The notes beneath the pieces were generated by a model. That model did no database searches. It worked only from the letters and a program-made list of their open reading frames with translations, and had not been told where the DNA came from. The translations under genes were made by a program, and so were the position numbers. This document shows, one piece after another, positions 1-64,000 of a DNA stretch of 64,000 nucleotides (the stretch's first letter is position 1; every line of letters begins with the position of its first letter). The DNA comes from Botryllus schlosseri. Taxonomy: Eukaryota. Where the stretch lies: the NCBI GenBank assembly GCA_051294905.1, contig CM119372.1, forward strand, positions 31,188,001-31,252,000, given 5' to 3'.

Positions 1-3000
1 TATCGAACGAAGACCCACCGTTTGGTTTCATTACCAGGTAAGTGAAAATTGTTTTCTGTTGGCTAGGTATGATTTGCATTTAGAAAAAAACGAACTACAC
101 CGATTAAGCGACGCTGTTTAATCTCATAATCCGATGAGTGAGTGAAATTTCCTTAGGGTTTGATTTACCGAGTTAATTACCGGCGATTCAATCGCATACA
201 AGTAAGATCTTTTACGGGATGAGTATTGTGACGACCTTTACTTTGACGAATGACAATGGGGAAAATTTCCGATTTCTTTGGTCGTGAGCGTTCTACAAAT
301 ATTTCCGGCATACATTTTGCAAGCAACCTACAATATTCTTTTGTTATGGTAATGACTTCCGCAAGTTTGGTTTTATGATTACAATTACTTTAGAAGATTC
401 AAATGATAATTTATGATCACTACCTCGAGCAACAATACAAACACATTTTGTAGATTTCAGTGTAGTGCCTATTGCGATTTTGTCAATGCTATGGGTTTTG
501 CGTATACTCAAGTCTAGTAGAATAGGATGGTTCAGTAAAGATATTCCAAATTGCTTCTGTGTTGATCATAGTCTTGAAGTGTTAATCTGTAGACTTCACA
601 ATGTCTTAGAGAGTGCGACCGGAATTATGTATTGATCGCGCGCTTCAAAGGGTACTAGATACCCAAAGTGATATTTTCACACTCTGTAAGTTGTGTATGT
701 TTCAATTCCTGTCACAACTCCGACAACAAATTGTATCAATTGCTGGATTCAATAGTAAGGACGTGTCATTGTGTCACTGACTCTACACTTAGTCGTTTCA
801 ATTATCCGTTGCGAATCGGGATAATAAAGCATTTTGCATCGGGTGTTTAATGTATGAATAATGGAATAATTGCATCTTTCGCTGTTGTTTATCGCAAACG
901 ATAGATTTTAATAATTGTACTGGTTGTTGAATGTAATAATACCGATATTGCTGTTTCATCTTTAGTCTTGGTTACTGGAAACAATTACATTTGTAAAATA
1001 TTTCCTGATATCGCGATACGCAGAGTGATTTTTATCGAGGGGGAGTAATTCTACAATCAAGAACATTTCAGACACGTATAGTTTTACAACTTAATATGTC
1101 AAGAACAATGGCACTGAAAAGTTTGTTGCTGTCATAACATTTACCACAACGCCGTGTCTAATTACCGCGAATAATTTAATAATCAAGTCTTGATCAACTA
1201 TTACATATGTCAAATCACTGTGTCAATCCTTATGTTTACATCATGATAATTTTCAATATAACGCCTGCGTTTGATCGTGAGAAATGGATTCTTAACTACG
1301 TTGGTCAGACTTTCAAATGTCGTATATTCTCAACATATGCCAATCTCAAGTTGCGTGCACCGATTAGTAATTACTTTATGTTACACGGTATACCGAGTAG
1401 TAATTACTTTCACAGTTGAGCAAAAAAGACGAGTTGGCGGTATATGACTACAACCAAACTTGCTATGGATTTTAGATTGTAGCGATTACTTGCGTAATCT
1501 TGACTACTTTCCATTCGGATACTGTTGAGTTGTAAGTTACAAACGGATTTACGTGACAAGGTTTTCCTTGTTGACTCTTTGGAGTATGGTAAGATGTTAA
1601 AATGTCGAGACGTAATACTATTTCCGTTAACTCAATTGCAACAAAAAAAATAACCAGACAGCTTGTTCAAGGTATCGACAAATAGATAGTAATATTCCGA
1701 TTTAACTCATCGCGTCACAACTCGATCGCGGTATGCACAAGTGGTTGGCAAGTTAGAAATGTTTACAACAATGGGCGATATTTCATTGACTGACTCGATT
1801 GTGTGTAGTAACACATTAAAATATCGCGATAGTAATTACTGAAACTCTCTTTGACAAACGTAAAGACAGGTCGCGAATAGAGTTGTAAGGTTTCATTACT
1901 TGTTTCAAATCTAATTCTAAATATGACTGGATTGAAAGTTGGTAGTCATGTTTGTCAATTTATTTCAATTCAGACTATGTCAAAGTCCAAATATTTCATT
2001 CTGGATTATTTTGATTTACCTTTAGTACATCCCGCGAATGGATTCCGACACCACACTATAACATTCTCAATAATAAGGACTCACGGATTTTCAATCAACA
2101 ATACCTGCATTTTTTGGTAAAGTTAGAGTTGGCAAATGATTAGTTGCGTGTTTTTGTTAAGCGTTTGATTTCTCAGTATTAAATACAATTATTGTATACT
2201 TGTTATTCCTGATTCTCATTGAGCTAGTTGGTATTGATTCTATAGGTGTGAAAACAGCGATGCGGAATGTGTGAATAATGCGATGCGGACGAAAGTCGGC
2301 GTCAGGAATATTCGGGTTACGTTCGATTCAACAGATCGCGTTAATAGGATTTGTCAAAGGATTTGAGTTGGGTCGAATCAATACATTCAAATACGAATCA
2401 ACTTGAGTTGTGTAGTAAGTTTCATTTCAAGTTGACAAACTAACGCATTGATTGAATATTTTCATGATTCTTATCATACAACTGAAGTCAGCCACTGTTC
2501 CGAAGTGTCAAAACATATAGCGACCACCAGAAAGTGTCAAATTGTTGGTTTTCGAATCACCGTCTGCGACGGCTCTGTGACAAACTTATTGCGGAAATAT
2601 TACCTTGTGAGCGATCGGTATGTCTGTAACACCAAATCATGAGCGATCTCTATGTCTGAAGCATTACCCTGTGAGTGGTCGTAGGATTTTAAAAATATTT
2701 CACACCTTTTTGAATAAGCGTTCACTTCACAAAGGATTAGGGTTAGAGCGGAAATAAGTGACAATTTGTCGCTATTCAAGTTACCGACACTGACGGTCTG
2801 TTATTCGTTACTTATTAAATCTTACGAGCGAAATCAAGTTCTGTGACAAACTGCTTACGAAAATTTCACCGCGTGAGCGATCGATATGTCTGTAACACCA
2901 AGTCGCGAAAGATGGTTATGTCCGAGACATTATCTCGTCAGCGATGGCGGGGTTTTGCAAACTATTTCACACCTTTTTGAAGTGTTAGTATGTGAACGCG

Positions 3001-3482
3001 GCTATTATTGATATTCGAATCGCCGTCTACGCCGGCTCTGTGGCAAACTAATTACCCAAACATTACCATGCGAGTAATTCCTAGATTTTGCAAACTATTT
3101 TGACGCCTTTTTTGTTGAAAGTACGACATTCCGCCCGCAGCCTATACCCGAAAGTACGAATCATCACCGCATCCATAAGAATAACGATATATCGAAGTGG
3201 CGCTCACCGTAAACGTTGGGATTCTCTCGAATACCAGACGGCAGGTCATCACCGCAGCCTATACCCGAAAGTACGACTCGCCAACACGAGTTTTCACGGT
3301 ATATCATCACCACAGCCTATACCTGAAAGGGTGGGGTCATCACCGCGCCCATAAGAAACAATGGCAGGTCACCACCACATGGGTGGTCTAAAAGGGTGGG
3401 GTCATCACCCCGGGTTTTCAGGCAGGTCACCGCCGCACCCATAAGAGCCCCTGCCAGGTCACGAGCGATCTATACTACTACT
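1..3482 (-). mobile_element. Non-autonomous Polinton-derived element, divergent copy; one arm only, truncated by the window start
   Basis: Ends ...GATCTATACTACTACT at 3482 (AGTAGTAGT on the minus strand). Colinear over its whole length with the reverse complement of 12659-16148. Carries the same ~30-bp GTGAT/CATCAC subterminal repeats as the Polinton end at 51751. No credible ORF. Confidence 0.9.
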
Positions 3483-11045: not shown

Positions 11046-12658
11046 TGTACTATTTAATCAAATATTTATAAACGTGACTTTTTTCTTGCCCGATGAGAAT
11101 TGTTATAATAGTAAATGGCCTTTTCACAACGGGTGTGAAACGTCAGCCAACTAGGTCGGCTCACTTTGGGCAATTCCATCCTGTCAAATAGGACCTACTT
11201 GGAAAGACAATGAATACCCTTGTTAATTCGGCGGCCCGTGACGCTATCAAAAACTAGGAAATTGGTCATTAGCACATTTGAGTTTGAGACCCCTGATCTA
11301 ACCTATCCTCTAGTTCTGGTTATCAACTTCCTCTTACCGACAAAATAATTACGTCACCACAACGCTTGCAGTACTTAATAAGCCATACTGTCTGGCTACA
11401 CTTTACCACAAAACCATCGATCTCCATTGACTTTCGTTGATATCCAACCCGCCCCTTCGTCTCTGCTTCCGCGGACAGCGCAAGCTTTAACGAGATGCTA
11501 TATTTATAGAAATATAGTACCTCAGTGGTATGGCTAGCAACTTCAGGTCATGATAGATAGACCCATAACAGCTGACTCAAGGTAAAACATTAATTTGAAT
11601 CGCTTTCACAATATTGTAAAAAAACAACCTAGTTTCACAACCCAAACACCATACAATAGTGAACCCTTAATATTCACGTTATGAGCTAACTGGAATTGAC
11701 AAATAATGATTGCTCTGAGCGCAAACTATACCGGTGCGGATGCAATAATCGAGGAGTAATTAACGTGCACGAAAAATATTAACCCGGCATCGGTGGAGCC
11801 CTGTTGCAGAAAATTCACACGAAGAACCGAATTCCTAACGACATACTGAGAAAATTATTGCCTACTAGCACGAATTCCTGAATATTGTTAAGTTTAACTC
11901 TACTTCAAATCCAATTTAATGGCAACTTGTTTTTTTTTGAACAAAGCATGCTTTCAAATCGAACGGATTATCTTCGCGTCTTAGCATCACTGCAGTAAAT
12001 CAGCAACTACGGAGCCGCAGGCTCCATCACTGTAGAATAAGTCATCGGGAAGTTACAGTCACTACGGATCAACTTACTGGCTCATAATATTTCAATAGGG
12101 GATATTATGCACACTCAGGCATCGCCGCAGAAAAGTAGGCAGCATACGGTACCGTGTTATATTCCGTATTGCTATCTTGACTTCTTCCAGGAAATAGCAG
12201 CCACTCCCGTGCTGGTTGAATTTCAGACGTCATACTCCTTTCTATGCATGACCGTCATATCCTTGAAGCAGTGAAATGTGTTTTTTAACATTACATCCCT
12301 GTGTTTCATAGTTCCCCATATTCAACATAACACCGCAATCTCAACAAGCGCAAAGTGTTGAATAAATTCCTGCGCGTGGTTTGCAATTGCCAGAAAGTCC
12401 TCTGTCCTAGCCCACTGGTTCTGAACCTTTGTGTCTACGCGACTGCACATTTTATTTGTTAATCTTCAATTGCGTTCGTTAGCAATCATTTATAATGAAG
12501 CCTTCTCTGATAGGTTGTTCCAACTGCTTTATAGAGCGGCAGCGAAGCACCTATTGTTGGTTATTTTCGTTGTCGCAAACTTAATTGTAAATCCTACGTT
12601 CTTTCTTACTTAGCTTAGGCCGACTTTCGTCTTACGTTATTACGTTCACTAGGTTGTT

Positions 12659-15600
12659 AGTAGTTAGTATGATCGCTGGTGACCTGGCAGGGGCTCTTAT
12701 GGGCCCGCTGGTGATGTGCCTGGAAACTCGTGTTGGTGATGGTACCCTTTTGACCCCCCCTTCCGCTCGTGATGTGCCATGTGTTCTTATGGGATCTCTG
12801 GTGATGGTACCCTTTCAGGTATAGGCTGCGTCGGTGATGTGTCGTGAAAACTCGTGTTGGTGATGATACCCTTCCAGACACCCTATCGCTCGTGATGTGC
12901 CATGTATTCTTACGGGATCTCTGGTGATGTGCCATTGTTTCTTATGGTATCTCTGGTGACCGCATCCTTTCAGTTATAGGCTGTAGCGATGTTGCGCCCG
13001 CGGATTCTTGTGTGATAATGTACTACCGTTATAGGTATAGGGATCTCTGGTGAAGTGGTGTTGAATATCAAGTATAGTAAACAGTGACGCCATTACTTAG
13101 TATGTATATTCAAAAATATTATATATGACCGATTCGAGGGAATCCCAACGTTTACGGCGAGTACGACAATGATATATCGTTATTCTTATGGACGCGGCGG
13201 TGATTCGTACTTTCGGGTATAGGCTGCGGGCGGAATGTCGTACTTTCAACAAAAAAGGCGTGAAAATAGTTTGCAAAATCTAGGAATTACTCGCATGGTA
13301 ATGTTTGGGTAATTAGATTACCACAGAGCCGGCGTAGACGGCGATTCGAATATCAACAATAGCCGCGTTCACAAACTAACACTTCAAATAGGTGTGAAAT
13401 AGTTTGCAAAACCCCGCGATCGCTGACAAGATAATGTCTCGGACATAACCATCTTTCGCGGCTTCGTGTTACAGACATGTCGATCGCTCACGCGGTGAAA
13501 TTTTAGTAAGCAGTTTGTCACAGAACTTGATTTCACTCGTAAGATTTAATAAGTAACGAATAACAGACCGCCAGTGTCGGTAACTTGAATAGCGACAAAT
13601 TGTCACTTATTTCTACTCTAACCCTAATCCTTTGTGAAGTGTACGCTTATTCAAAAAGGTGCGAAATAATTCTAAAATCCTACGATCGCGCACAAGATAA
13701 CACCTATAAGACATAACCATCTCTCGTGACTTGTGGTTACATACATCGCAATCGCTACAATGTAATATGTTGGTAGTTGGGTGCAGAACTGGATTTCACG
13801 AGTCTGATATAATAAGAATATTACCTATTAAGTAATAAGCACCGAATAACAGAACCGTCGCAGACGGCGACTTGAATATCCAAGATTTGATACTTTTCGC
13901 GATCGCTATATGTTTCACGTTGACTTTGGTTGCGTGATGCGAATCATGAGAATATTCAATCAATGTGTCAATTTGTCAACTTGAAATGAAACTCACTACA
14001 CAAACCAAGTTGATTCGTATTTGAATGTGTTGATCCGGTACAACTCTAATCCTTTGAGAAATCCATTTACCGCGATCAGTTGATTCGAACGTAACTTGAA
14101 TATTGCTGACTCCAACTTCAGCCGCATCGAATTATTCACACATTCCACGCTGCTGTTTCACACCTATAGAATCAATACCAACTAACTAAACAAGAATCAA
14201 GAATCACAAGTATGCACATACAATAATTGTATTTATTACTGAGAAATCAAACGCTTAACAAAAACACGCAACTTAGCATTTGCCAACTCTAGCATTACCA
14301 AAAAAATCCAGGTATTGTTGATTGAAAATCCTTGAGTCCTTATTATCAAAAATGTTATAGTGCGGCGTCGGAATCCATTCGCGGGATGTACTAAAGGTAA
14401 ATTTGGGTAATTCAAAATGAAATATCTCGACTTTGACATAGTCTGAATTGAAATAAATTGACAAACATGACTACCAACTTTCACCCAGTCACATTTCGAA
14501 ATTATACGCATATTGATTTGAAACAAGTCATGAAATATTACAACTATATTCGCGATCGGACTTTTCGTTTGGTAAAGATAGTTTCAGAAATACTATCACT
14601 ATGACATCTCAACATTTTAACATGTTGCCATCAACAAAAGAGTAAAATACAAAAAACCTTGGCAAGTCAATCCGTTTGTAACTCACCCAACCAAAACAAA
14701 ACGTATCCGTATGAAAAGTAGACAAGACTACGCGAGTAATCACTACAATCCAAAATCCATAGCAAGTTCGGTTGCATTCATAGTCCGCCAACTCGTATTT
14801 TTTATTAAACAGTAAAAGTCGTTACTATTCTGCAACCTAAAGTAATTACTACTCGGTGCGCGCAACTTGAGATTAACATATGTTTTGAGTATATGATATT
14901 TGAATGCCTGACTAAGGTAGTTAAGAATTCATTTCTTGCGATCGAACACCGGTGTTACATTGAAAGTTATCATGTTGTAAACATCCTTATTAACACATTG
15001 GTTTGACATACGAGATTTTGTAATAGTCGATCACGACTTGATTATTAAATTATGACGTAATTAGACCGGGGTTGTGTTGAAAGTTATTACGATACCAACA
15101 AACTTTTCAGAAACATTGTTATTAACATATTGATTTGTAAAACTAGACTTACATGTGCGAAATGTTCTTGATTTGAAAGATATTCCATGTTGGTACAAAT
15201 CACTCTGCGTTACGGATATCAGAAAATATTTTTACAAATGTAATTGTTTCCAGTAACCAAGACTAAAGATGAAACAACAATTTCGTTATTAAAACATTGA
15301 ACACCCGACGCAAAATGCTTTATCGGTCGAATTCGTGACGGCTAATTGAAACGACTACGTATAGAGTCAGTATATCACAATTTCATGTCGTTACTATTGA
15401 ATCCAGCAATTGATACAATTTGTTATCGGAGTTGTGACAGGAATTGAAACATATGCACTTTACAGAGTGTTAAAATATCACTTTTGGATATCGAGCGTCG
15501 TTCGAAGCGTGCGACCAATACTCAATTACATCCACACTCTCTGTCGTAGGCGCTAAATGTAAAATCATTACAAGGTAACACTTCCAGGCTTTGATCACCA

Positions 15601-16088
15601 CAGAAGCGATCTGGAATATCTTCACTGGGTGCACCTTATTCTACAACACTTGGGTAATATACAAAACTCATAGCGGTATTAAAATCGAAATATGTCCTAC
15701 ACTGAAATCTACAAAAATCTGTTTGTATTGTCGTTCATAGTAGTGATACCGATTTGAACCGCCTAAAATAATTGTCATCATCTAACCAGACTACTGAAAG
15801 TCGTTGTCATCACAAAAACAATTCGCCTGCCGTTTGTTAAATGTGTCCTATAGCTAGAATTATTTGTAAAACACACACACACGATCAGAGAAATTAGAAA
15901 TCTTCCTATTGTCATTCGTCAAAGTAGATGTAATTACAGTCACTAAAAGACCTCACTTGTATGTGATTGAATCCCTAGCAATTACCCCACTAAACCGGAT
16001 TCCAAAGAAATTTTACTCACTCGACGGATATGAAACAGCGTCGCGTAATCGGTGTAGATCGTTTTTCTAAAGGTAAATCATATATGTC
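12659..16088 (+). repeat. Left TIR arm (3430 bp)
   Basis: Reverse complement of 17000-20223 apart from scattered substitutions and 206 extra bp (14332-14537). Confidence 0.95.
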
Positions 16089-16182
16089 CAGCAGAAAACA
16101 ATTTTCACTCACCCGGAAAGAAACCGAAGTGTGGGTCGACATTCGATATTTTGTTTGCGAGAAATACTTTGTAATAAACACA

Positions 16183-16537
16183 CTGGAGTGGTTGAGCTTT
16201 AACATCGTCAAGCTGTCATTTGTATCGTTTAATTAACCGACATTTAGCGATTGGTGAACATACCGAACGATACACAGTCACTTCGAAATGTTCCGTTGAT
16301 CGTAATTTCCATCATCGTAATAATCGAAGTACATTTGTTTCAAATCGCTGGAGTGGTTGAGCTTCACATCATCAGACTGCCATCTGTACATCAAGAATAC
16401 ATCCGACTTGTAACTGTATCGTTTACCTAACCGAGTTGTATGCACAGTTTGATATTTAGCGATTGCTGAACATAGCACTTCGAAAGACTGCGTTGATCTC
16501 AATTCCTTTATCGTGATAATCGAAGTACATTTGTTTC
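16183..16537. repeat. Two degenerate tandem units (~165 and ~190 bp) in the central spacer
   Basis: CTGGAGTGGTTGAGCTT at 16183 and 16348; TAATCGAAGTACATTTGTTTC at 16321 and 16517; TTAGCGATTG(G/C)TGAACATA twice. Confidence 0.85.
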
Positions 16538-16999
16538 GATTTCATAAAAACCAACTTTTCTATGACATGATAAATTTTTGAAAAGTTATGCTTAGAAGAT
16601 TGGTTCATCTCGCGAAAAAATAATATACCACTCATATTGATACTGTTACTCCATTGACCGATATTTTCAAACGAGTCGATTTTCAACCGAGCAAAATTTT
16701 TACTTGAGTTGTCCCGCTTACTATATTTAAATGTAAACTCACCCGTCTATCAAAACCACAACAAACAATGATAAAAAGTACACAAGCAAACACAACAAGT
16801 TTTACTTTTGTTGGACACTAATTATTATTCCAAGCATCTCATTTCATACTAAGTGTATATGAAAGATATTCACGACACACGAAAATATTCGATATTCCAT
16901 GCTACGAACATACGCAATGATTGGTGACGCTTTCACACTATTTCGATTTAGTGTAACAAAAACAACAACCTGAGAATCCAAACAATCTTGCAAAATCAA

Positions 17000-19900
17000 G
17001 ACATATATGATTTACCTTTAGAAAAACGATCTACACCGATTACGCGACGCTGTTTCATGTCCGTCGAGTGAGTAAAATTTCTTTGGAATCCGGTTTAGTG
17101 GGGTAATTGCTAGGGATTCAATCACATACAAGTGAGGTCTTTTAGTGACTGTAATTACATCTACTTTGACGAATGACAATAGGAAGATTTCTAATTTCTC
17201 TGATCGTGTGTGTGTGTTTTACAAATAATTCTAGCTATAGGACACATTTAACAAACGGCAGGCGAATTGTTTTTGTGATGACAACGACTTTCAGTAGTCT
17301 GGTTAGATGATGACAATTATTTTAGGCGGTTCAAATCGGTATCACTACTATGAACGACAATACAAACAGATTTTTGTAGATTTCAGTGTAGGACATATTT
17401 CGATTTCAATACCGCTATGAGTTTTGTATATTACCCAAGTGTTGTAGAATAAGGTGCACCCATTGAAGATATTCCAGATCGCTTCTGTGGTGATCAAAGC
17501 CTGGAAGTGTTACCTTGTAATGATTTTACATTTAGCGCCTACGACAGAGAGTGTGGATGTAATTGAGTATTGGTCGCACGCTTCGAACGACGCTCGATAT
17601 CCAAAAGTGATATTTTAACACTCTGTAAAGTGCATATGTTTCAATTCCTGTCACAACTCCGATAACAAATTGTATCAATTGCTGGATTCAATAGTAACGA
17701 CATGAAATTGTGATATACTGACTCTATACGTAGTCGTTTCAATTAGCCGTCACGAATTCGACCAATAAAGCATTTTGCGTCGGGTGTTCAATGTTTTAAT
17801 AACGAAATTGTTGTTTCATCTTTAGTCTTGGTTACTGGAAACAATTACATTTGTAAAAATATTTTCTGATATCCGTAACGCAGAGTGATTTGTACCAACA
17901 TGGACTATCTTTCAAATCAAGAACATTTCGCACATGTAAGTCTAGTTTTACAAATCAATATGTTAATAACAATGTTTCTGAAAAGTTTGTTGGTATCGTA
18001 ATAACTTTCAACACAACCCCGGTCTAATTACGTCATAATTTAATAATCAAGTCGTGATCGACTATTACAAAATCTCGTATGTCAAACCAATGTGTTAATA
18101 AGGATGTTTACAACATGATAACTTTCAATGTAACACCGGTGTTCGATCGCAAGAAATGAATTCTTAACTACCTTAGTCAGGCATTCAAATATCATATACT
18201 CAAAACATATGTTAATCTCAAGTTGCGCGCACCGAGTAGTAATTACTTTAGGTTGCAGAATAGTAACGACTTTTACTGTTTAATAAAAAATACGAGTTGG
18301 CGGACTATGAATGCAACCGAACTTGCTATGGATTTTGGATTGTAGTGATTACTCGCGTAGTCTTGTCTACTTTTCATACGGATACTTTTTGTTTTGGTTG
18401 GGTGAGTTACAAACGGATTGACTTGCCAAGGTTTTTTGTATTTTACTCTTTTGTTGATGGCAACATGTTAAAATGTTGAGATGTCATAGTGATAGTATTT
18501 CTGAAACTATCTTTACCAAACGGAAAGTCCGATCGCGAATATAGTTGTAAGGATTTTCAATCAACAATACCTGGATTTTTTTGGTAATGCTAGAGTTGGC
18601 AAATGCTAAGTTGCGTGTTTTTGTTAAGCGTTTGATTTCTCAGTAATAAATACAATTATTGTATGTGCATACTTGTGATTCTTGATTCTTGTTTAGTTAG
18701 TTGGTATTGATTCTATAGGTGTGAAACAGCAGCGTGGAATGTGTGAATAATTCGATGCGGCTGAAGTTGGAGTCAGCAATATTCAAGTTACGTTCTAATC
18801 AACTGATCGCGGTAAATGGATTTCTCAATGGATTAGAGTTGTACCGGATCAACACATTCAAATACGAATCAACTTGGTTTGTGTAGTGAGTTTCATTTCA
18901 AGTTGACAAATTGACACATTGATTGAATATTCTCATGATTCGCATCACGCAACCAAAGTCAACGTGAAACATATAGCGATCGCGAAAAGTATCAAATCTT
19001 GGATATTCAAGTCGCCGTCTGCGACGGTTCTGTTATTCGGTGCTTATTACTTAATAGGTAATATTCTTATTATATCAGACTCGTGAAATCCAGTTCTGCA
19101 CCAAACTACCAACATATTACATTGTAGCGATAGCGATGTATGTAACCACAAGTCACGAGAGATGGTTATGTCTTATAGGTGTTATCTTGTGCGCGATCGT
19201 AGGATTTTAGAATTATTTCGCACCTTTTTGAATAAGCGTACACTTCACAAAGGATTAGGGTTAGAGTAGAAATAAGTGACAATTTGTCGCTATTCAAGTT
19301 ACCGACACTGGCGGTCTGTTATTCGTTACTTATTAAATCATACGAGTGAAATCAAGTTCTGTGACAAACTGCTTACTAAAATTTCACCGCGTGAGCGATC
19401 GACATGTCTGTAACACGAAGCCGCGAAAGATGGTTATGTCCGAGACATTATCTTGTCAGCGATCGCGGGGTTTTGCAAACTATTTCACACCTATTTGAAG
19501 TGTTAGTTTGTGAACGCGGCTATTGTTGATATTCGAATCGCCGTCTACGCCGGCCCTGTGGTAATCTAATTACCCAAACATTACCATGCGAGTAATTCCT
19601 AGATTTTGCAAACTATTTTCACGCCTTTTTTGTTGAAAGTACGACATTCCGCCCGCGGCCTATACCCGAAAGTACGAATCACCGCCGCGTCCATAAGAAT
19701 AACGATATATCATTGTCGTACTCGCCGTAAACGTTGGGATTCCCTCGAATCGGTCATATATAATATTTTTGAATATACATACTAAGTAATGGCGTCACTG
19801 TTTACTATACTTGACATTCAACACCACTTCACCAGAGATCCCTATACCTATAACGGTAGTACATTATCACACAAGAATCCGCGGGCGCAACATCGCTACA

Positions 19901-20223
19901 GCCTATAACTGAAAGGGTGCGGTCACCAGAGATACCATAAGAAACAATGGCACATCACCAGAGATGCCGTAAGAATACATGGCACATCACGAGCGATAGG
20001 GTGTCTGGAAGGGTATCATCACCAACACGAGTTTTCACGACACATCACCGACGCAGCCTATACCTGAAAGGGTACCATCACCAGAGATCCCATAAGAACA
20101 CATGGCACATCACGAGCGGAAGGGGGGGTCAAAAGGGTACCATCACCAACACGAGTTTCCAGGCACATCACCAGCGGGCCCATAAGAGCCCCTGCCAGGT
20201 CACGAGCGATCATACTAACTACT
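17000..20223 (-). repeat. Right TIR arm (3224 bp)
   Basis: Inverted copy of 12659-16088. The ORF track shows mirror-image ORFs (14609-14791 minus = 18297-18479 plus; 12657-12935 minus ~ 19947-20339 plus). Confidence 0.95.
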
Positions 20224-20555
20224 GTTGTTGCTGCAGTAGGCCTACTACGTGTCAGTTATCTTCATCCGATTGTATATGTTACTGTTGCTGTTCTACGAGT
20301 CAGCTATCCTCATCCGAATCGAACTTTAGCATTTATTAAACTCGTGGAATTAGCTACATGGATGAATTACAACGATTAGCATCCGTATGGATAGCCCATT
20401 AGACAGGCTTCTGTGCCTATAACACTGAGTAACAATTTTGAACGAAAAATTTGTTGACTTTGATTTTGCGCTTGACTTGCTAATTTTGATATGCTGATTC
20501 CAAAAATGCCGCTGGTTTTCTAGTATCATGTCAAGTTTTTCTCTACAGTCTACGA

Positions 20556-48143: not shown

Positions 48144-48995
48144 CTGAAAAACATATACAATACCGCATTAGTTACATATATGTGTATCAAACTATATAAA
48201 TCTTGCGAAGCAAAGCTGTAGGTTGTATGGTTGGTGACACTTATAATCGGGACCAATGCCAGCACATGACATCGGATAACTCCGGACACTATCAATACAT
48301 AAATACTTGATTAGTCAAATGATACAAAAACCAGGGTATTAAGATATCGCACGTCGAATTTATTCCGCTTCGCACTATTCGAGTTTCATTTGGAGGTAGC
48401 CAGTAACGAATTACTTCCACGTTTTCCAGATAATTCAGTAGTTTCACTACGGAGGCTGTACTTAAGGCGTCATCATCATTGGTTTATTAGCAATATTATC
48501 GGTTCAATACACCACAAAAATGCGATACAAAGAAAAGATAGGAAGTTGTCGAAGCGACATGGAGTAGTCTATTGAATCAGATACCCACCTTGGCCTAGGC
48601 AATGTAAAGAGGAGGCATGCACACTCAATGAAAAGTAAAGAAGATAGTATAAAAAGGGCAAGTAGCAAGAAATGGGGTGGCATGTCATGGAAGGCGAGAT
48701 CGATAGGTTAGTCGTGGTCCGGTAATGTTGAGGATGGACTAATTAATATTCACTGAGTTGAGTTTTATGAGTGAAATTATCAAAATACCCGCGTCAAAAT
48801 CTCCTATATCCCGGCAACGAATATGTACTCGAGAATTGAACGTATTTTGGTCATTTTGTGTGTCGCCAACATACACCCTGCCATTCCAAGTATAGATGAG
48901 TAGCCGTCATGTGTCGGGCATTTGTCATAAAAGATGTTCCTATAACCCTCCTATCATTTTCAATCTGCAGGTTATTATAGATGTCAAGATCAGAC

Positions 48996-50396
48996 CTTTA
49001 ACAAGCTCAGAGGATGTTTCCATGTATACCGCGCCAGTAGCGAATCGTCGAACCACTGACCATCGTTCCGCATGAAGACCTTCTTTATTAAAGTCCCGGA
49101 ATCTGCTAATCTCCATCTCAGCTACAAATCTCGCTGCCAGATATTCTTGAATGCTTTGGTGGCAGAAAAAGAATACGAAATCCCCTTGCATCAAACTGCG
49201 GCTGAGCAGATTTTCACCCGGAACCTTTGCCATTAAATCTTTAACGTCATCGGCGGACAGTTCAAAATGTTGTAAATCAGATATCTTGAAGACAACTCTT
49301 CCTTCTTGCATGCCTCGAAAAGACATCTCTTTCAGTTTGTTCACTACCGACGAGATGTCTTCTGATTTTCGTATGTTTTCTACGCCTTCAAGAGCTGCGA
49401 TGATCCTATCGTACAGTTCTGTGATTGTAGCCGGAGGAGGCCTACGTGGATCTTTTCCCATTACAATCGCGGTTAAAATTAGGAAGACCGGTTGGGATAT
49501 TATATGGAGCAATCGTGGCGACATCCTTTCAATTCGTTTCCAAAGGCAGACTCCGTTTTCTCCAAGAAGGGAAGTGAATAGTCCCTGTGCGTCTGGTAGA
49601 GTGAAACCATGCAGCATAATAATATCATGGGGTCTGGCTTTCTGCGGTAGCTCAGAGATCCTGAATTCCCTTGAAGTTATGAAAATTTTAACGTGCCGAA
49701 GGATATTCCGTGCTAAAATATTGTATAGGATTGTCCAGGTGCTTTCTATGTCATGATTTTTGATGGTTCGAATGTCTCTATGGTAAATATTGAACCTTGC
49801 TTGATCGAGCCCGTCAAAAAATATAACCGCATCGGATTGATTTTCAACTAACCATTTAAATGCCTGATTTTCTTCGCAATCAGTTTCGTAAAGACCACCG
49901 AAAAGAAATTTTGATGGCTTGATAAGGTTCTCGTCTTTAACATCCTTCAATTCAACATAAAGTATCATCTTCTTTTCGTTGAACAGTTTATGTATGTTTT
50001 CCCCAGAGGATAAACCCAGAGATTTTTTTACTAGTCTACGTGTAAGTGTCGTTTTACCTGATCCCGCTGACGCGACTATGGCTGTAATACCGACCGTTCC
50101 AGACGGCTGTAATTTTTCTCTCTGCCATATGGACGCCATTACCTCGTCAATTTGGATCGGTTTGTTTTCATTCTCATCCTGGTAGTTGAATCCGACTTCA
50201 TTTACCAGTTGATTTTGTACAGCTACATCTCTTTCATAGCGACCTTTGTAGTAGTGGGCAACATCAACCTTTCGCATTTGCGGGTGAACTACAAAGTCTG
50301 TCTCTTGCAGCCCGTCGAGCTTGAATTCATCAAGAATACTGACCGAAGAGCGTTCGTCAGCACTATCGTTGACACTCTTTATAAGTCTGTCGACGT
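48996..50396 (-). CDS. NACHT-domain NTPase (NLR-like innate immune receptor), large internal exon
   Basis: Walker A ASAGSGKT, Walker B VIFFDGLDQ, sensor FITSRE, winged-helix FCHQSIQEYLAA. The frame is open upstream of the annotated ATG to acceptor TTTTGTTGCAG| (50397); donor AAAG|GTCTGA at 48995. Confidence 0.92.
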
Positions 50397-50896: not shown

Positions 50897-51750
50897 ATGT
50901 CTGGAGAGAAGTATATTAAAGTTCCAACGTTGGACGTGTTACCAGACTCTGCAGATAGTGTGAAGATATTCTCTCATTGGGAGCGGATGTTGAAGAGTTT
51001 AATCGAAGCTATATCTGCTCTTTCAACTGATGTAAACAAGCTCGCTATATTTTCAGGTTATTTATCACCTGAAGTCTCCTCATTTATTGAAGAAATTGAT
51101 GATTACGATGCTGCTATCACCGAGCTGCAGTCCCTTTACAAAAAAAAGAAAAACGAAGTCTACGCCCGACATCTGCTAGCAACTGCAACGCAAGAGGTTG
51201 GAGTTAACGTGTCAGAATTTTCTAGAAAACTGATGGCGTTGTCTAAAGATTGTAACTTCTTGGCCGTAAATGCTCAAAAGCATAAAGAGGAAGCTGTAAG
51301 AGACGCTTTCATCACTGGGCTGAGGTCCCCGGCAATTTGACAGAGATTACTGGAATGCGATGAACTAACTATGCAAAAAGCCTTCCAGACTGCGGACACG
51401 TTAGAAAGAGCCTAATTGTTCGCCAGCTCGTACAATGTCAACCCTCCTTCGTCTGATACCATCGCTTCTGCGGAAATCGCAGCAGTTCGGCAAAGCGATC
51501 CTGAACACGGGACAGATTTTACCGCGGCTGTAGAAAAGCCTGGAGCACCGAGATTACTGCGCAAATGCTTCTTCTGCGGCGGATCTCATGTGGCAGACAA
51601 GCCCGTTTGTCCTGCAAAGGACGTCGAATGCCTGAAATGCGGAAAAAAGGGGCATTTTGCAAAGGTATGTCGATCCCCTCGTTCATATGACATCCGAGCA
51701 ACCGCCAGCATGCTTCTAGCAGGAGTTCCAAATTGTCTCTGGCGTGAGTC
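50897..51750 (+). pseudogene. gag: Gypsy/Ty3 LTR retrotransposon gag, with two in-frame stops, cut by the Polinton insertion
   Basis: NEVYARHLLAT...RDAFITGLRSPAI*QRLLE gag motifs; zinc knuckles CFFCGGSH...CPAKD and CLKCGKKGHFAKVC. Stops at 51338-51340 and 51413-51415. A possible LTR at ~50651-50843 has no clear PBS. Confidence 0.85.
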
Positions 51751-52075
51751 AGTAGTATATACGATCGGTCGCGAACTAACGTTTTTTGCATGGGGTAGTA
51801 TAGGCGGGGTGGTGACGCGCCTGAAAACCGGGGGTGGTGATGCGCCTTTTTAGACCCCCCTCTCGGCGGTGATGCGCCATGTGTTCTTATGGATGCGGTC
51901 GTGATGCGCCATTGTGGCTTATGGATGCGGCGGTGATTCGCCGTGAAAACTCGTGGTCGTGACTCGTCTTTTTTGCTATAGGCTGCGGCGGTGATGCGCC
52001 ATGTATTCTTACGGGATCTGTGGTGACTCGCTATGTGCTCTTATGGGTGCGGTCGTGATTCGCACTTTCAACCAT
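51751..52075 (+). repeat. Polinton left terminus: subterminal array of ~22-32 bp GTGA(T/C)-core repeats (part of the TIR)
   Basis: About ten copies of (G/C)GTGA(T/C)(G/T)CG... e.g. GTGATGCGCCATGTGTTCTTATGGATGCGGTC. Full TIR length cannot be set without the right end. Confidence 0.85.
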
Positions 52076-55499: not shown

Positions 55500-58400
55500 A
55501 TGACTCGACACCTTTGGAATCATGAAGAACACGCACCGCCAGAGATCGATAACCAAAAGCAACAAATTACATCTCAGATCTGGCAAGCGGTGAAATCGTA
55601 TGTAGTAAACAGTAGCCACGTGCGCAATACTAGCGTCAGCAATCGTAAGCGGTCGGATGTTTTCTAAGATACCCAATCGGTCTATCTGATCAACCCCCAG
55701 TTATTTGTATATCCTACCGATGGTTTGTTGATCGGTTGTGTCGGTATTAAACTCCCGATATGGCTTGCGAGAGCGAGATGTATCATGACATTTACACGCC
55801 GAAAGAATAATACTAAATACAAGGACAATCTGTGTGCTTTTCGCTGTATTGGTCACACGCTAGGTAAAGACACCAAAGCAATGGCCCAACAATTCACTTC
55901 GACATATGGTGTAAATGCAGAATCTGGCGTGACACTTGACATGCTGGATAATATTGAGGATTTGTTTAATGTCGCCATCTTCGTGTATACTAAGACTGAG
56001 GGTAAAGCTGTCGCACTCCGTCGTAGTACGTTTGAAGCGAAACCTGTGTACTTACATTTAGAAAATGCACACTTCTGTCTCATTACTGACATGAGGCGAT
56101 ATATGGAGAGCTATCGATGTGATGTTTGTCAAAGATTTTTTTATGAGCAGCACGAATTGACCAGACACAAATGTACAACAGAGCCTGTTGAAGTGTTTCC
56201 CGGTGGCGTATATACACCTCCTCTGGCCATATTTGAAAAGCTTGATCTAGAAGGGATGTTTGTTCCTCACCAGCTTCGTTATTTCAAATACCGTATCGCG
56301 TTTGATATTGAGAGCATGTTCGAGAAGTGTGATATTCCAGATTCCTCCAAAACTTCGTGGGAGTGCAAACATATTCCCATTTCTGTTAGCATATCTTCTA
56401 ATGTGGAAGGGTTCTTGGAACCGTATGTAATTGTCTCGAACGGTGACCCAAACGACTTGTGTGCGGAAATGGTTGATCATTTTCATGATATTCAAAGTGA
56501 GTCATTTAGGTTGTTACAGATGGAATATCAACACTACTTGGACATGCTCGAAACTAAAATTGCCGAAATGAAAGCACTCGATCCTTCCGAGAAAAAAATA
56601 CCACTTGAACGTTTACAGGAGGAGTTTATGCGATATTTAAAACAAATCCCTGTTTTGTCGTTCAATGGTGGTCGGTATGACTTGAACTGTCTCAAAGAGT
56701 ACTTGATGGGTTTACTCGTTGACGAAAATGTGAGTGTATTGAAACGGGGTAACAACTTCCTCTCTTTGACAACCAACAGACTTAAACTTTTGGACATTGT
56801 AAATTACTTGGCACCCGGGTTCTCGTACGATGCTTATTTGAAAGCCTTCAAATGTAGCGCCGCTAAAGGTCATTTTCCGTATGAGTTTCTGACTAGTTTG
56901 GAAAAGCTGGATTATACGAGTCTACCTAGCCACGATGAGTTTTACAGCTCGCTAAAAGGTCGTAATATATCCACAGCTGAATATGAAAACTGTTTGAAGG
57001 TTTGGAATGATAACAAAATGACCACTTTACGTGATTATCTCAAATGGTACAACGCAATCGATACTCATTACTTCATTGAGGGGTTAGAAAAACAATTTCA
57101 ATCTTTCAAAAGTCAATTCAGTGTGGATATATTCAAAGAAGCTGTCTCCCTACCCGGGGTTGTATCGAGGCATCTTTTCAATAGCATTCCGCGTGATTTC
57201 ACCTTGTTCAATGATAAACACCAAGATCTGGTTTCGCTATTCAGAGACAATTTAGTAGGCGGACCGTCGGTCATTTTCCATCGATATCAAAAACAGGGTG
57301 AAACTCGAATCAAAGAAGTTTTTTATAAGGAAAACGCACAGATTACCCAACATGTAACAGGGCTGGACAGCAATTCGTTATACTTTTTTGCTTTGAGTGA
57401 ACCTAGTCCAACCGGTTTCCCGGTACATTGGCAACCACTCGATGCTGAGTGTACTAAATTCAAACCGGTGAAGACCGCACCGAAATGGGGGGAGACAGCA
57501 GCTCAATGGCTAAACTGGTATTCGTATACCCACAATGTACATGTCCACCATGCTTTTAATGGACCTGAAATCCGCGTAGGAGCTCGTAATTACCCTGCTG
57601 ATGGGTTCTATCGTAATTCAGCTGGTCAAGGGGTAATCTTGTCTTTTCTTGGATGTCATTTCCATGCACATCAGTGCAGATTTGGCTGTGATGATTTGGA
57701 ACGTCGAGAACGGACTAAACGTGTTCATGATTATTACAAAAGCCTCAATTACCAAGTCATATGTAAATGGGAATGCGACTGGCGCACGGAGAAACAGGAA
57801 AATCCTGATATTGTGCGATATCTTAATGGTATTCAACCACAATTGACTCGAGCCAAGTCTGTCACCGCACAAAAATTGATGGAGATGGTAATGACTGGTA
57901 CATTCTTCGGATGTTTATCAGTTGATATTTTTACGCCAAAACATTTACAAAGGAAGTTTGTTGAACTATGTCCTATATTCAAAAATACGATGGTGTCTCG
58001 CGAGCATTTGACAGGTCACATGAAACAGTTCGCTATTGATCGTAAATTACTCCCCAAACCCACGCGCATGTTGGTTGCTTCATACTGGGGCAAGAAAATC
58101 TTGTTGACCTCCGACTTGATCAAGTGGTATGTAGAGCATGGGTTGATTATATCCAAAATTCATGAGGCGGTCGAATTCACAAAAAAGACCTGTTTTGACA
58201 GCTTTGCGAAAAATGTCTCAGACTGTCGACGTGCTGGGGACCGCGACCCCAGCCTAGAGATCATTGCCCTAACGCAAAAATTAGCTGGAAATAGCAGTTA
58301 TGGCCGCGTCTTGATGAACCCACGTAAATTCAAACGAACGTCCTACTGTGATAAAAGCGAATTGGGCACCAATGCGAAGGATCGTTTTTTCGTGAAATGT

Positions 58401-59092
58401 GACGAATTGAACGCTGATCTATTTGAAATAACGAAGCGACCTAAAACGATCAAGTGGGGTAACTGTATTCAAGTGGGATTTTGGGTGTATAACAATGCTA
58501 AGCTCAAGATGTTGTCGTTTTTTTATGACTGCTTGTGTAAATATTTCCGTGACGAGTGCTTCATGCTATTAATGATGGCCACAGACTCCCTCTATCTTTT
58601 GCATTCAGCCTCATTCGACGATATTCTTATCCCTGAGAAAAGAGATGAATTTTATCTTGAATACGAGAACTGGTTTCCACGCTATTTTTGTGATGAGCAC
58701 CGAACTGAGTTTTTGGCTGACCCGGTTTCTTTTGATCGCTCGAGGCAGTGTTGCAAAGATGCGTATGCGTATTACCTTCGTCAACCGGGTTTGATGAAAG
58801 TGGAGTATGAAGGTGGTACATCTTTCTGCGGTCTCCAATCCAAAAATTACTTTTGCGATGGACCAAAGAAAAAATTAGCTTCCAAAGGGCTCCAGAAATC
58901 CAATCAAATTGACTTCGAAAATTTTCTGGGTGTCTTGACATCTAAGGAAGCTACGGGGGGAGTGAACAAGGGGTTTCGGTGCAGAGATGGGGTGTCTATA
59001 CGTACAAACAACAGCGTAAAACATTGTCCTATTTCTACGCCAAACGTCGAGTGCTCGAGGATGGTGTGTCAACCCTACCATTAAATGTGTAA
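55500..59092 (+). pseudogene. polB: Protein-primed family B DNA polymerase (vOTU-like protease, Zn finger, exonuclease, polymerase with VSR-like nuclease insertion); near-intact but with lesions
   Basis: DNLCAF...ENAHF (vOTU Cys/His); ExoI FDIES, ExoII FNGGRYD, ExoIII YNAID; motif A DSNSLY, motif B KLAGNSSYG, motif C MATDS. In-frame TAA at 55665. A frameshift in the G-run at 58989-58992 hides the canonical end YTYKQQRKTLSYFYAKRRVLEDGVSTLPLNV* (stop 59090-59092). Confidence 0.93.
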
Positions 59093-59689: not shown

Positions 59690-60298
59690 ATGGAATTGAT
59701 CCACCCATTCGCGTGTATTGTGAGTGGTCCTTCAAGAAGTGGGAAGACTACTTTTGTTGCAAAGCTGATTAGGCATGCCGCATCCATGATTAAACCAAGT
59801 GTATCCAGGGTCGTATATTGTTACAATAATTATCAGGAGGTTTTCAAGACGATGCATAATGTAGAATTCCACGCTGGTCTAGATATTTTAGAAGAGTTGA
59901 AGGTTTGCTCTGAAGACACCTTGATTATAGTGGATGATTTCATGACTGAGACAGCGAAAATTGCAGACTACTTTACAAGATTTTCTCATCATTCAGCCAA
60001 GACAATTTGTTACGTCACACAGAACCTGTACCACAAGGGTAAAGGGGCACGTGACTTGAGTCTTTCAAGCTCGTATATGGTGATTTTCAAGAATCCGCGC
60101 GACCAACAGCAGATCAGTTTTCTTGGTCGACAAATGTATCCAAACTCTAGATTTTTAACAGAGGCTTATCGTGACGCTGCTAGGCAACCTCATAGTTATT
60201 TATTCCTCGATCTCACGCAAGAAGCGCCTGAAAATCGACGAGTTATGACCAATATATTTCCTGGTGAAACCATGGTGGTTTATAGCCCGATGGTATAA
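59690..60298 (+). CDS. A32/FtsK-like DNA packaging ATPase
   Basis: Walker A GPSRSGKT, Walker B LIIVDD, and TQNLY / FKNPRD / YLFLDL motifs typical of Polinton ATPases. TATATAAA at 59644-59651. Confidence 0.95.
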   Translation: MELIHPFACIVSGPSRSGKTTFVAKLIRHAASMIKPSVSRVVYCYNNYQEVFKTMHNVEFHAGLDILEELKVCSEDTLIIVDDFMTETAKIADYFTRFSHHSAKTICYVTQNLYHKGKGARDLSLSSSYMVIFKNPRDQQQISFLGRQMYPNSRFLTEAYRDAARQPHSYLFLDLTQEAPENRRVMTNIFPGETMVVYSPMV

Positions 60299-60679: not shown

Positions 60680-61080
60680 CTTCTTTCAAAAAAATCTTCA
60701 TAACTCCGAACCCGATCAACGAGGTTGAAGCTCAGAAATTGAATTTGGATATCGATAAATGTATGAGCGACATATTACAGATGAACATACCCCAAGAACG
60801 AAAATTAGCCTTATATAACGACGCACTAAATCGTTATCAAACAAAACACGACACATTGAATCAACCGATGAAAATCGATATATCAGAACAAAGGAATCTA
60901 TTTTCGGCTAGTGAGTTGGACGCACTGCGACGCCTGATCAAGGGTGAACCATCAAGGATTCCTAAACCTCACTCACCATCACCGAGTAGCCAACGAAGCA
61001 AAGTAAAGACCCAACATGCCAAGACGAAAAGTGGTCGTACACCCAAGACCCCGAGACGATACGGATGGGAGCCATACTAA
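60676..61080 (+). CDS. Polinton hypothetical protein (helical N-terminus, basic P/S/K-rich tail)
   Basis: ATGA overlap with the upstream gene; LDxxMxDIL...KLALYNDALNRY segment; overlaps the integrase start. Confidence 0.75.
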   Translation: MTSFKKIFITPNPINEVEAQKLNLDIDKCMSDILQMNIPQERKLALYNDALNRYQTKHDTLNQPMKIDISEQRNLFSASELDALRRLIKGEPSRIPKPHSPSPSSQRSKVKTQHAKTKSGRTPKTPRRYGWEPY

Positions 61081-62086
61081 ATATTTCACGCCAGGGCTAC
61101 CTGGTAGTTTCCGCGGCGCATACGTATTCTCTAGAGGGCGGAATAGAACCAAAGTCAAGGAGTTTCTTTCGAGCAAGGACGCGTACACAAAACATTTTCC
61201 CTATCGAAAGAAATTTAAGAGACCTAGGGTGATTACGTCCGGTCTCGGTGTTCAGTATCAAACCGATCTCATGCATATGCAAAATCTTTCAAAAGAAAAC
61301 GATAATTTTAAATATGTGTTGGTGACGATCGATTGTTTCAGTCGATTTTTATATCTGTATCCACTCAAGAACAAAACCTCGCAAGGTATTATTCGCGGAT
61401 TCAAGGAAATATTTAAGGATCGTATACCTCATGTTATTCAAAGTGATCAAGGTTCTGAGTTTACTAATCGTGCGTTTCAGACTTTCTTAAAAGAGAACAA
61501 TGTGCGACATTTTCATACAAATAGTGAACTGAAAGCATCGATATGCGAGCGTGTTATTCGTACTGTGAAGCAAGTGTTATACCGTTATTTCACGCATAAT
61601 AAGACTTTGAATTATGTCAGTGTCCTGTCTGAGATATGCCGGGGGTATAACACTACTTTTCACGTGGCTATAGGGTGTCCTCCAGCGGATGTTAATTATT
61701 CGAATCAAGAACAAATTTTCCATAGGTTATACGGTGACATGACCCCTAAAAAACCCAAACTAACTATCGGCACACCCGTCAGGATTTCGAAATCACGTGG
61801 TAATTTTGTAAAAAGCGCCTTGGCGAGTTGGACCGAAGAAATCTTTTTCGTATCTCAATGTCGTAAAGGTGACCCTCCTACTTATCAATTGAAAGACTAC
61901 CATGGTGAAGTTATAGACGGTCGCTTTCAGCGTGAAGAGTTACAACCAATAACTAAAAATAATAATATTTACAATATCGAAAAAATCCTGTCTACTCGCA
62001 GGAAAGGAAAGAAAACGCAATATCTTGTAAAATGGTTTGGTTATCCGTCTAAATTTAATTCTTGGGTCTCGGATTTGTATAAATAG
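61016..62086 (+). CDS. int: Retroviral-type (rve) DDE integrase with C-terminal chromodomain
   Basis: YQTDL / IQSDQGSEF / ASICER catalytic triad; YNIEKIL...YLVKWFGYPSKFNSWV chromodomain; uninterrupted. Confidence 0.96.
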   Translation: MPRRKVVVHPRPRDDTDGSHTKYFTPGLPGSFRGAYVFSRGRNRTKVKEFLSSKDAYTKHFPYRKKFKRPRVITSGLGVQYQTDLMHMQNLSKENDNFKYVLVTIDCFSRFLYLYPLKNKTSQGIIRGFKEIFKDRIPHVIQSDQGSEFTNRAFQTFLKENNVRHFHTNSELKASICERVIRTVKQVLYRYFTHNKTLNYVSVLSEICRGYNTTFHVAIGCPPADVNYSNQEQIFHRLYGDMTPKKPKLTIGTPVRISKSRGNFVKSALASWTEEIFFVSQCRKGDPPTYQLKDYHGEVIDGRFQREELQPITKNNNIYNIEKILSTRRKGKKTQYLVKWFGYPSKFNSWVSDLYK

Positions 62087-63840: not shown

Positions 63841-64000
63841 AAATAGTGACGTTAACCACTTCTATGCTTGGTGTTGATTTTGAACACAGACTACTCACCA
63901 TCAACAACATCCCGACGAGGTATTGTGAATTAGCCCTCATGGAGATCGATTTCTCTTTAACCGAACCGGTGATTGGTCAATATTTGTTTGTGTATTGTGA
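63837..64000 (+). CDS. Minor capsid protein (penton) paralogue 3, partial; absent from the ORF track
   Basis: ATGA overlap; MKIVTLTTSMLGVDFEHRLLTINNIPTRYCELALMEIDFSLTEPVIGQYLFVYC(D), sharing the ELAL..F and YLFVYCD motifs. Confidence 0.8.
   Translation, partial: MKIVTLTTSMLGVDFEHRLLTINNIPTRYCELALMEIDFSLTEPVIGQYLFVYC

Follow-up and report, generated by a model that had tools for sequence, protein, structure and literature searches.

What is a 7.6-kb piece of DNA that is almost its own inverted copy, bears Polinton ends at both extremities and holds no credible gene, and how could it have moved? This question is raised by an element in a 64,000-nucleotide stretch of the Botryllus schlosseri genome (assembly GCA_051294905.1, contig CM119372.1, positions 31,188,001 to 31,252,000 of the forward strand), which is called the window here and to which positions refer unless another locus is named. 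The element spans 7565 bp (12659-20223) and consists of a left arm on the forward strand (12659-16088, 3430 bp), a right arm on the reverse strand (17000-20223, 3224 bp) and, between them, a 911-bp spacer (16089-16999). It starts with AGTAGT (AGTAGTTAGTATGATCG), ends with ACTACT (CGATCATACTAACTACT) and is flanked by an exact 6-bp target site duplication (TSD), GTTGTT, found at 12653-12658 and, upon comparison with the right flank, again at 20224-20229. Self-alignment resolves the arms into two collinear inverted blocks (12659-14333 with 18549-20223, and 14538-16088 with 17000-18550), which differ by 18 mismatches over 3226 positions, that is, 99.44% identity. The right arm lacks 204 bp (14334-14537, forward strand) that the left arm and relatives of the element possess, and the inverted arms therefore make up 88% of the 7565 bp. 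As for coding capacity, there are five ATG-initiated ORFs of at least 60 aa; the longest lying wholly inside the element has 92 aa and runs over terminal subrepeats, and a 130-aa ORF extends beyond the element boundary. An Rfam family scan and a tRNA scan of the element were both empty. The termini, the duplication, the arm and spacer lengths and the lack of a credible ORF, all listed in the initial annotation, have been re-measured and are confirmed.

Long-read libraries are known to produce spurious palindromes, which makes it legitimate to ask whether the present one is a fold-back error of the assembly, or an inverted duplication of local host DNA, with no mobile element involved. Among the public contigs of three DNA runs, whose pieces are just 60-240 nt long, none is listed that bridges the junctions; on the arms, the word depth of these contigs adds up to very high values, and the left flank is covered in run X1 only. 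No empty site and no extrachromosomal form came to light. However, the flanks are unique and the duplication exact, the arms differ by their 18 mismatches and the 204-bp deletion, the spacer is asymmetric and many relatives with their own TSDs sit on other contigs, so that an artefactual or host origin is barely credible. The element is a genuine TSD-flanked insertion, as had been proposed.

Which mobile elements do its ends belong to? Termini of the AG...CT type with an (AGT)2//(ACT)2 motif are those of Polinton/Maverick elements (polintoviruses), reportedly treated by Kapitonov and Jurka in 2006. The same end motifs, together with 6-bp duplications, are described for vertebrate Mavericks (Barreat and Katzourakis 2021, PMC8097293). 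Besides the motif, the terminal region of the element (12659-13199, forward strand), which includes 2.3 copies of a 32-bp subrepeat (12885-12959), is common to coding Polintons of the same genome. One of these is present in the window, as annotated: it starts at 51751 on the forward strand, measures 15,271 bp and extends 3021 bp past the window end at 64000, with terminal inverted repeats (TIRs) of 668 bp at 99.1% identity, flanks reading TGAGTC/TGCGTC, and genes for a protein-primed DNA polymerase (pPolB, 55725-59084), an ATPase (59690-60298) and an rve+chromo integrase (61016-62086); its capsid-side ORFs matched neither a Pfam family nor a PDB sequence. The annotation had matched the terminal repeats of the element to this Polinton, and the 29-mer on which it relied is indeed found at 12892 and 51991 with a T/C difference (five matches in the window at no more than two mismatches, versus none in 100 shuffles), but the overall resemblance is just 70.8% over 243 bp (12687-12927 against 51788-52026) and a closer partner lies elsewhere. 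This is the coding element K (C10:15432336-15449746, 17,411 bp, TIRs of 756 bp at 99.3%, duplication CACCTC), a terminal 504 bp of which is 89.7% identical to arm positions 38-541, while its first 37 bp differ from those of the element. K encodes a stop-free integrase 96% identical at the amino acid level to that of the window Polinton, and a pPolB at 93% with one in-frame TGA. The terminus is thus homologous to that of carriers of both pPolB and integrase, and no coding Polinton with termini more than 90% identical over the whole arm was found among the best 40-150 candidates of each genome search.

These ends also recur among relatives. In the ten elements surveyed (E and H, whose ends were not reached, stand outside the survey), the 6-bp duplication is exact in seven (the window element, B, C, D, F, G and K) and matches at five of six positions in I, J and the window's coding Polinton; nine start with AGTAGT, and J with (A/G)GTAGTG. 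Duplications are 9 bp long for Foldback (FB) elements and 7-8 bp for P/Galileo elements. FB and Galileo of Drosophila belong to other superfamilies, differ from the window element in these duplication lengths and have no similarity to Polinton ends. What they have in common with it, in the account given of them in PMC3573991, is very long inverted arms with internal repeats, often non-coding and structurally unstable. This likeness, and the absence of Polinton genes from arms and interiors, would suit a fold-back element from a different superfamily (Mutator/FB-like, P/Galileo-like or a further family with 6-bp duplications) that merely resembles a Polinton at its ends. Against it stand the 6-bp duplications of all ten elements, which are not of FB or P length, the (AGT)2 motif, the long terminus shared with K and a terminal 19-mer that relative G has in common with the window's Polinton, and we regard such an origin as quite improbable. 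A MITE identity was also considered and rejected: MITEs are smaller than about 0.8 kb, whereas this element measures 7565 bp and most of its relatives 12-15 kb.

The element therefore shares with Polintons the end motif, the 6-bp duplication, TIRs and a terminus common to coding copies of the same genome, but it differs from them in two respects. First, it lacks the pPolB, integrase and capsid genes: autonomous Polintons encode pPolB and an rve integrase, plus ATPase, protease and capsid, whereas no internal ORF exceeds 92 aa here, and a tblastn search of arms and interiors with the window Polinton ORFs of at least 70 aa returned matches to the terminal subrepeats only. Second, its inverted repeats fill 88% of its length (about 94% in G), versus TIRs of 46-1447 bp in the intact vertebrate Mavericks described in PMC8097293; the account of one butterfly Polinton gives gene-bearing TIRs of about 2 kb (bioRxiv 10.1101/2025.02.07.637071).

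Arms of this length had been presented as exceptional. They are real, but they are the norm for the family to which the element, judged by its sequence, belongs, a large and abundant palindromic (fold-back) family whose members mostly measure 12-15 kb. Inverted pairs of its arms are found on many contigs, and 11 of 13 paired terminal matches lie 12.1-15.1 kb apart. Arms reach 6.9 kb in this family, as in G (14.7 kb), where they are 99.9% identical and enclose an 827-bp loop. A neighbouring relative of 15,382 bp (C2:31176101-31191482, TSD CACGCC) reaches into the window, where part of its right arm occupies positions 1-3482 on the reverse strand; this part and the arms of the element show 74-91% similarity, and a second palindromic family member is thereby only 9 kb away. 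The genome searches scored the best 40-150 of 376-3187 candidates, and copy counts, like the junction uniqueness discussed below, are therefore lower-bound statements.

The claim that the element is gene-less holds for the window copy and not for the family, because full-size members bear a conserved ORF of about 91 aa (dN/dS 0.20-0.39) in a unique middle of about 0.8 kb, and homologous loops are found in B, C, F and G. This loop ORF has no Pfam family, the four database relatives found are unnamed and 90-91 aa long, and an AlphaFold model is all-beta with a mean pLDDT of 57.6. Matches in a protein atlas (0.92-0.93; bacterial hypothetical, WYL and WCX clusters) were discarded, recognition being under the stated threshold.

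Comparison with full-size relatives reveals what the window copy has lost. Most of its spacer (16089-16969, forward strand) is simply the continuation of the left arm, which both arms of longer relatives carry, and a contig of run X5 has a loose end at 16969 from which it reads on as in relative D. The homologous centre of the family and its small ORF are missing, the right arm being truncated at the equivalent of 16088, and the break is marked by a 30-bp filler (16970-16999, forward strand) with no second copy, and no match of at least 13 nt that would explain its origin, in the window or the loci compared (52 for the second copy). The element is a shortened, centre-deleted form of a 13-15-kb palindromic progenitor: a deletion has taken 2.5 kb from the inner side of the left arm, 3.1 kb from that of the right arm and, between them, the unique centre that bears the ~91-aa ORF. 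The break itself would reflect repair of a long and unstable palindrome by end joining, in situ or shortly before the element integrated. Only one other palindrome was found, in element H, that turns at the equivalent of 16088 and has a short spacer.

The initial annotation had instead seen a distinct 7.6-kb mini-Polinton, and this form could in principle be a propagating satellite, akin to a defective-interfering genome, that is replicated, possibly packaged, and integrated as such. The ends of the element are intact and its TSD exact, its arms are young at 99.44% identity, and D, which was broken independently, has nearly the same length (7608 bp), both being near half of the 15,271-bp Polinton. 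However, the 16969/17000 junction is spanned by the window alone among the best 40 of 1674 candidates scored, D has other breakpoints (arms of 2.4 kb, spacer of 2.8 kb), and the spacing of the 11 paired terminal matches makes the short form an exception. A search for further copies, which had been called for, yielded many relatives with their own TSDs on other contigs and no second such junction among the candidates scored. With a spacer that continues the arm, a missing centre and ORF, filler at the break and a junction unique within that sample, a distinct mini form is not upheld, and propagation of the 7.6-kb form as such is unlikely.

How, then, did the element get where it is? Of the satellite scenario first put forward, the part that stands is that the element was most likely moved in trans by the coding Polintons of the same genome, which we infer from the shared ends, the 6-bp duplications and the many stop-free copies of pPolB (36 of 41 matches scored) and integrase (102 of 114). 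The element retains cis-acting ends only, in the form of its (AGT)2 termini and some 0.5 kb of terminal sequence with subrepeats that is common to coding Polintons, and it was inserted with a 6-bp duplication, the mark of the Polinton rve integrase; the many apparently intact Polintons of the genome would have replicated and integrated it in trans. Whatever its origin, the element might now serve as a hairpin-RNA locus giving small RNAs against Polinton termini. A read-through transcript would be predicted to form an intramolecular duplex of some 3.2 kb, and some 0.5 kb of the arm is common to coding Polinton TIRs, but what coding elements share is confined to this terminal part, and such a role is a long shot. 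Thirty reads of the raw RNA run X24 aligned to the region, each only in part.

As for the palindrome itself, the arms provide two clues. In nine of nine elements, the nearest relative of each arm is its own partner (99.4-100% identity, versus 83-98.8% between elements), which points to homogenisation by copy-back or via a panhandle. The sister-arm pattern could equally stem from chromosomal gene conversion. The other clue is an arm segment (14080-14360, forward strand) that matches, at about 71%, sequence of two coding Polintons which reaches 164-168 bp past the TIR, in each of them at a single end; the matching regions straddle the inner TIR boundary (left end of K, L051:783-1059; right end of the window Polinton, L047:2190-2417). 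A copy-back origin, whose basis is this similarity of about 70% over some 240-290 bp, would have one Polinton end give rise to both arms in the course of protein-primed replication, through a strand switch or because the displaced strand folded back, and the likeness of the arms may have been maintained along lineages by the same copy-back process or by panhandle repair. Taken together, the element is probably a non-autonomous, gene-less member of an abundant palindromic family derived from Polintons/Mavericks, that is, a centre-deleted, trans-mobilised copy whose arms would have arisen by copy-back.

Similar molecules are known from viruses. Adenovirus is a linear double-stranded DNA replicon with protein-primed replication, whose displaced strand can pair its ends, allowing panhandle repair of the inverted terminal repeats, and its replication and packaging extend to sub-genomic molecules in which one end is duplicated. 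Long inverted repeats in defective adenovirus DNA were reportedly studied by Daniell and Mullenbach in 1978; unlike the window family, such DNA neither integrates nor is inherited. Snap-back or copy-back defective genomes, in the account of PMC13506859, are likewise almost wholly palindromic and non-coding, stem from one parental end, keep the replication ends and depend on a helper; the window element has the palindrome, the lack of coding capacity and the replication ends in common with them, and would share the one-end origin and the dependence on a helper. The difference is that theirs are RNA-virus genomes arising anew in infections, whereas the window family is DNA, integrated in the germ line, diversified and high-copy, with a conserved small ORF in its full-size members. 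Fold-back or palindromic derivatives of Polintons did not turn up in a full-text literature search.

These parallels invite a bolder proposal, which we advance tentatively. The palindromic family may be a lineage of snap-back defective genomes, derived from an endogenous Polinton virus and fixed in the germ line, and in effect a heritable satellite (i) whose hairpin or panhandle intermediate would renew both arms from one in each cycle, (ii) which would have its own conserved loop gene of about 91 aa and (iii) whose length would be held near that of its helper (12-15 kb versus 15.3-17.4 kb); the window element and D would then be half-length forms.

To our knowledge, replication of Polintons/Mavericks has never been directly shown. 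A near-wholly palindromic, gene-poor family with Polinton ends and sister arms is the pattern expected from copy-back or panhandle intermediates of protein-primed replication, and it offers a sequence-based handle both on the mechanism of Polinton replication and on the dynamics of a parasite of a parasite in an animal genome. To this, the window copy contributes an unambiguous example of a lost centre, a coding element closely related at its ends and a second family member nearby. Were the snap-back satellite proposal to prove true, these elements would be a fossil record of the protein-primed strand-displacement replication of Polintons in an animal.

The palindromic 7565-bp insertion at window 12659-20223, which the initial annotation had described as a gene-less 7.6-kb "mini-Polinton", has the structure reported for it, with its inverted blocks, ends, duplication, ORF content and 29-mer all located. 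A repeat search finds 12659-14333 inverted against 18549-20223 (1675 nt) and, collinear with this block, 14538-16088 inverted against 17000-18550 (1551 nt). Counted base by base, the arms (12659-16088 and 17000-20223) differ at 18 of 3226 positions (99.44% identity), and the element sits between two copies of GTTGTT, the left one followed by AGTAGTTAGTATGATCG and the right one preceded by CGATCATACTAACTACT. The 204 bp at 14334-14537 that are missing from the right arm are carried by relatives, and were therefore deleted from that arm. Five ATG ORFs of at least 60 aa are present, the longest of which (92 aa) runs over the terminal subrepeats, and Rfam and tRNA scans of the element returned no family and no tRNA.

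This element is one member of a large family. In the 495.5-Mb assembly (219 contigs), there are at least 78 matches to the outer arm, 70 to the inner arm and 41 to the "spacer" between the arms (the best 40 of 3160, 3187 and 1589 first-look candidates, respectively, having been scored), most of them forming inverted pairs within one contig. Palindromic relatives B to J and a coding Polinton, K, were compared locus by locus, together with P, the coding Polinton that starts at window 51751. Copies with their own target duplications, which had been sought, are present, with different and exact 6-bp duplications in B (CACGCC), C (TACAAC), D (CACGTA), F (ACCGTT) and G (CACGGT). B (C2:31176101-31191482; 15,382 bp), whose right arm is window 1-3482, has arms of ~6.5 kb (98.5-98.8% identical), a 794-bp loop and ~1.5 kb extra in one arm; it lies 9 kb upstream of the studied element (stretches L031/L032). 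C (contig C16; 19,847 bp) has ~6 kb inserted in its right arm (C16:19888257-19894219; L033-L035), probably a nested transposon, with ORFs of 209 and 284 aa. D (C10:7988884-7996491, L036; 7,608 bp) has 2.4-kb arms and a 2.8-kb spacer, F (contig C15) has arms 96.7-98.1% identical, and G (contig C7; 14,691 bp) has arms of 6,932 bp at 99.9% around an 827-bp loop. I (contig C2; 12,649 bp) is flanked by TACACG/TACATG (5/6 match), and the stretches examined for E and H (contig C6) end inside the elements. J (C15:1292694-1308636, L049/L050; ~15.9 kb; CTCGTA/CTCGTG, 5/6), which begins (A/G)GTAGTG, belongs to a different palindromic family with other arm sequence (at least 7.6 kb at 99.7%). Leaving E and H out, the duplications are exact in seven of ten elements and match at 5/6 in three, and nine of the ten start with AGTAGT; each palindromic member has few ORFs of at least 100 aa.

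How these palindromes relate to coding Polintons is best seen in K (C10:15432336-15449746; 17,411 bp; exact CACCTC duplication), which has 756-bp terminal inverted repeats (TIRs; 99.3%), a stop-free integrase 96% identical to that of P, a pPolB that is 93% identical and interrupted by a single TGA, and an interior 89.6% identical to P. Arm positions 38-541 of the studied element are 89.7% identical to the K TIR. A terminal 372-bp query gave 13 pairs among the best 40 matches scored, 11 of them spaced at 12.1-15.1 kb, the others being the studied element (7.6 kb) and K. The arm segment 14080-14360 matches the left end of K at 70.9%, spanning the inner TIR edge with 168 bp outside the TIR, and no counterpart was found at the other end of K; in P, the arm likewise matches across the inner TIR edge, at the right end only. 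Both arms thus hold sequence that coding Polintons have at one end only, as a copy-back origin predicts, the similarity being modest (~70%). Stop-free copies account for 36 of 41 scored genome matches for pPolB and 102 of 114 for the integrase; candidate helper Polintons are thus numerous in the genome. With these stop-free genes, ends close to the K TIR and 6-bp duplications, the reading that the element is Polinton-derived and would be mobilised in trans is well supported. Intact vertebrate Mavericks, as described in PMC8097293, end in the motif (AGT)2//(ACT)2, carry TIRs of 46-1447 bp and are flanked by 6-bp duplications; full-text literature searches found no palindromic or fold-back Polinton derivative.

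The resemblance to P itself is limited. P (15,271 bp, ending 3021 bases past the window end) encodes pPolB (PF03175), an ATPase and a chromodomain-bearing rve integrase, between 668-bp TIRs (99.1% identical) flanked by TGAGTC/TGCGTC (5/6 match). The 29-mer is indeed shared (12892 and 51991), and the subrepeated termini are alike over 243 bp (70.8%), while arm 14126-14360 resembles sub-terminal sequence at the right end of P over 239 bp (~70%). Beyond these, tblastn with all P ORFs matched nothing in the arms, which are therefore not decayed Polinton genes. P itself appears to be inserted into an LTR retrotransposon: to its left is an ORF with a gag-like zinc knuckle, and to its right one encoding aspartyl protease, RT and RNase H (window 51416-51853 and L047:2981-4780, L047 being the stretch that covers the right end of P). 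Directly upstream of P lies a 445-aa ORF with a NACHT domain (E 1.2e-13; window 48940-50277, minus strand). Two more inverted pairs in the window (10351-10531/28085-28265 and 26641-26797/36582-36738; 157-181 nt, 84-85% identity) are probably copies of other repeats.

The reading as a 7.6-kb mini satellite gives way to that of a centre-deleted member of a giant palindromic family. The "spacer" sequence 16089-16969 sits in both arms of relatives, where it continues the arm; the loops of full-size B, C, F and G are mutually homologous (70-86%) with no homologue in the window, and those of E, I, D and the studied element are arm pieces. Past 16969, D continues with sequence also seen as a loose end in one public run; the studied element has 30 bp, with no second copy in the window or the relatives' loci examined, and then the right arm from the 16088 equivalent. 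Compared with G, it lacks ~2.5 kb of left arm, the loop and ~3.1 kb of right arm, and a 241-bp junction query matched full-length only itself among the best 40 of 1674 candidates. Together, these observations are most simply explained if a long palindrome lost its centre in a single deletion event that left filler behind, which would have occurred in the chromosome or shortly before integration. The right arms of H and the studied element stop at the identical nucleotide (C6:30523678-30523691, L044; window 16088/17000), H having a 12-nt spacer; the closer relatives E and F read through this endpoint, and the genome search found no short-spacer centre there besides H. A hot spot or shared ancestry could account for it. 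The studied element and D, two short copies broken independently, are each about half the length of P, which could be a coincidence (n=2).

Nor is the family as a whole without genes, although the studied element is. The unique loops of G, C and F carry a conserved open frame of ~91 aa, broken in B and absent from the studied element; it lies at L042:7691-7966 (minus), L033:7621-7896 (minus, in C), L039:9434-9709 (plus) and L049:4770-5045 (minus, in J). Genome-wide, 143 of 150 scored matches are stop-free (best 150 of 1190 candidates), and many are paired in inverted orientation within arms of another palindromic family, for example in J, which has only this ORF module in common with G. Its dN/dS is 0.20-0.39 in all six pairs. 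The protein collection holds only four relatives, unnamed and of 90-91 aa, a Pfam search gave no family, and the predicted structure is, with low confidence, all-beta.

Whole-arm identities within elements are 96.7-99.98%. In a 481-bp segment compared across 18 arms of nine elements, the nearest relative of every arm is its own partner (99.4-100%), against 83-98.8% between elements, and arm homogenisation therefore outpaces lineage divergence. Homogenisation would take place either at each replication, by inferred copy-back or panhandle repair, or by conversion in place.
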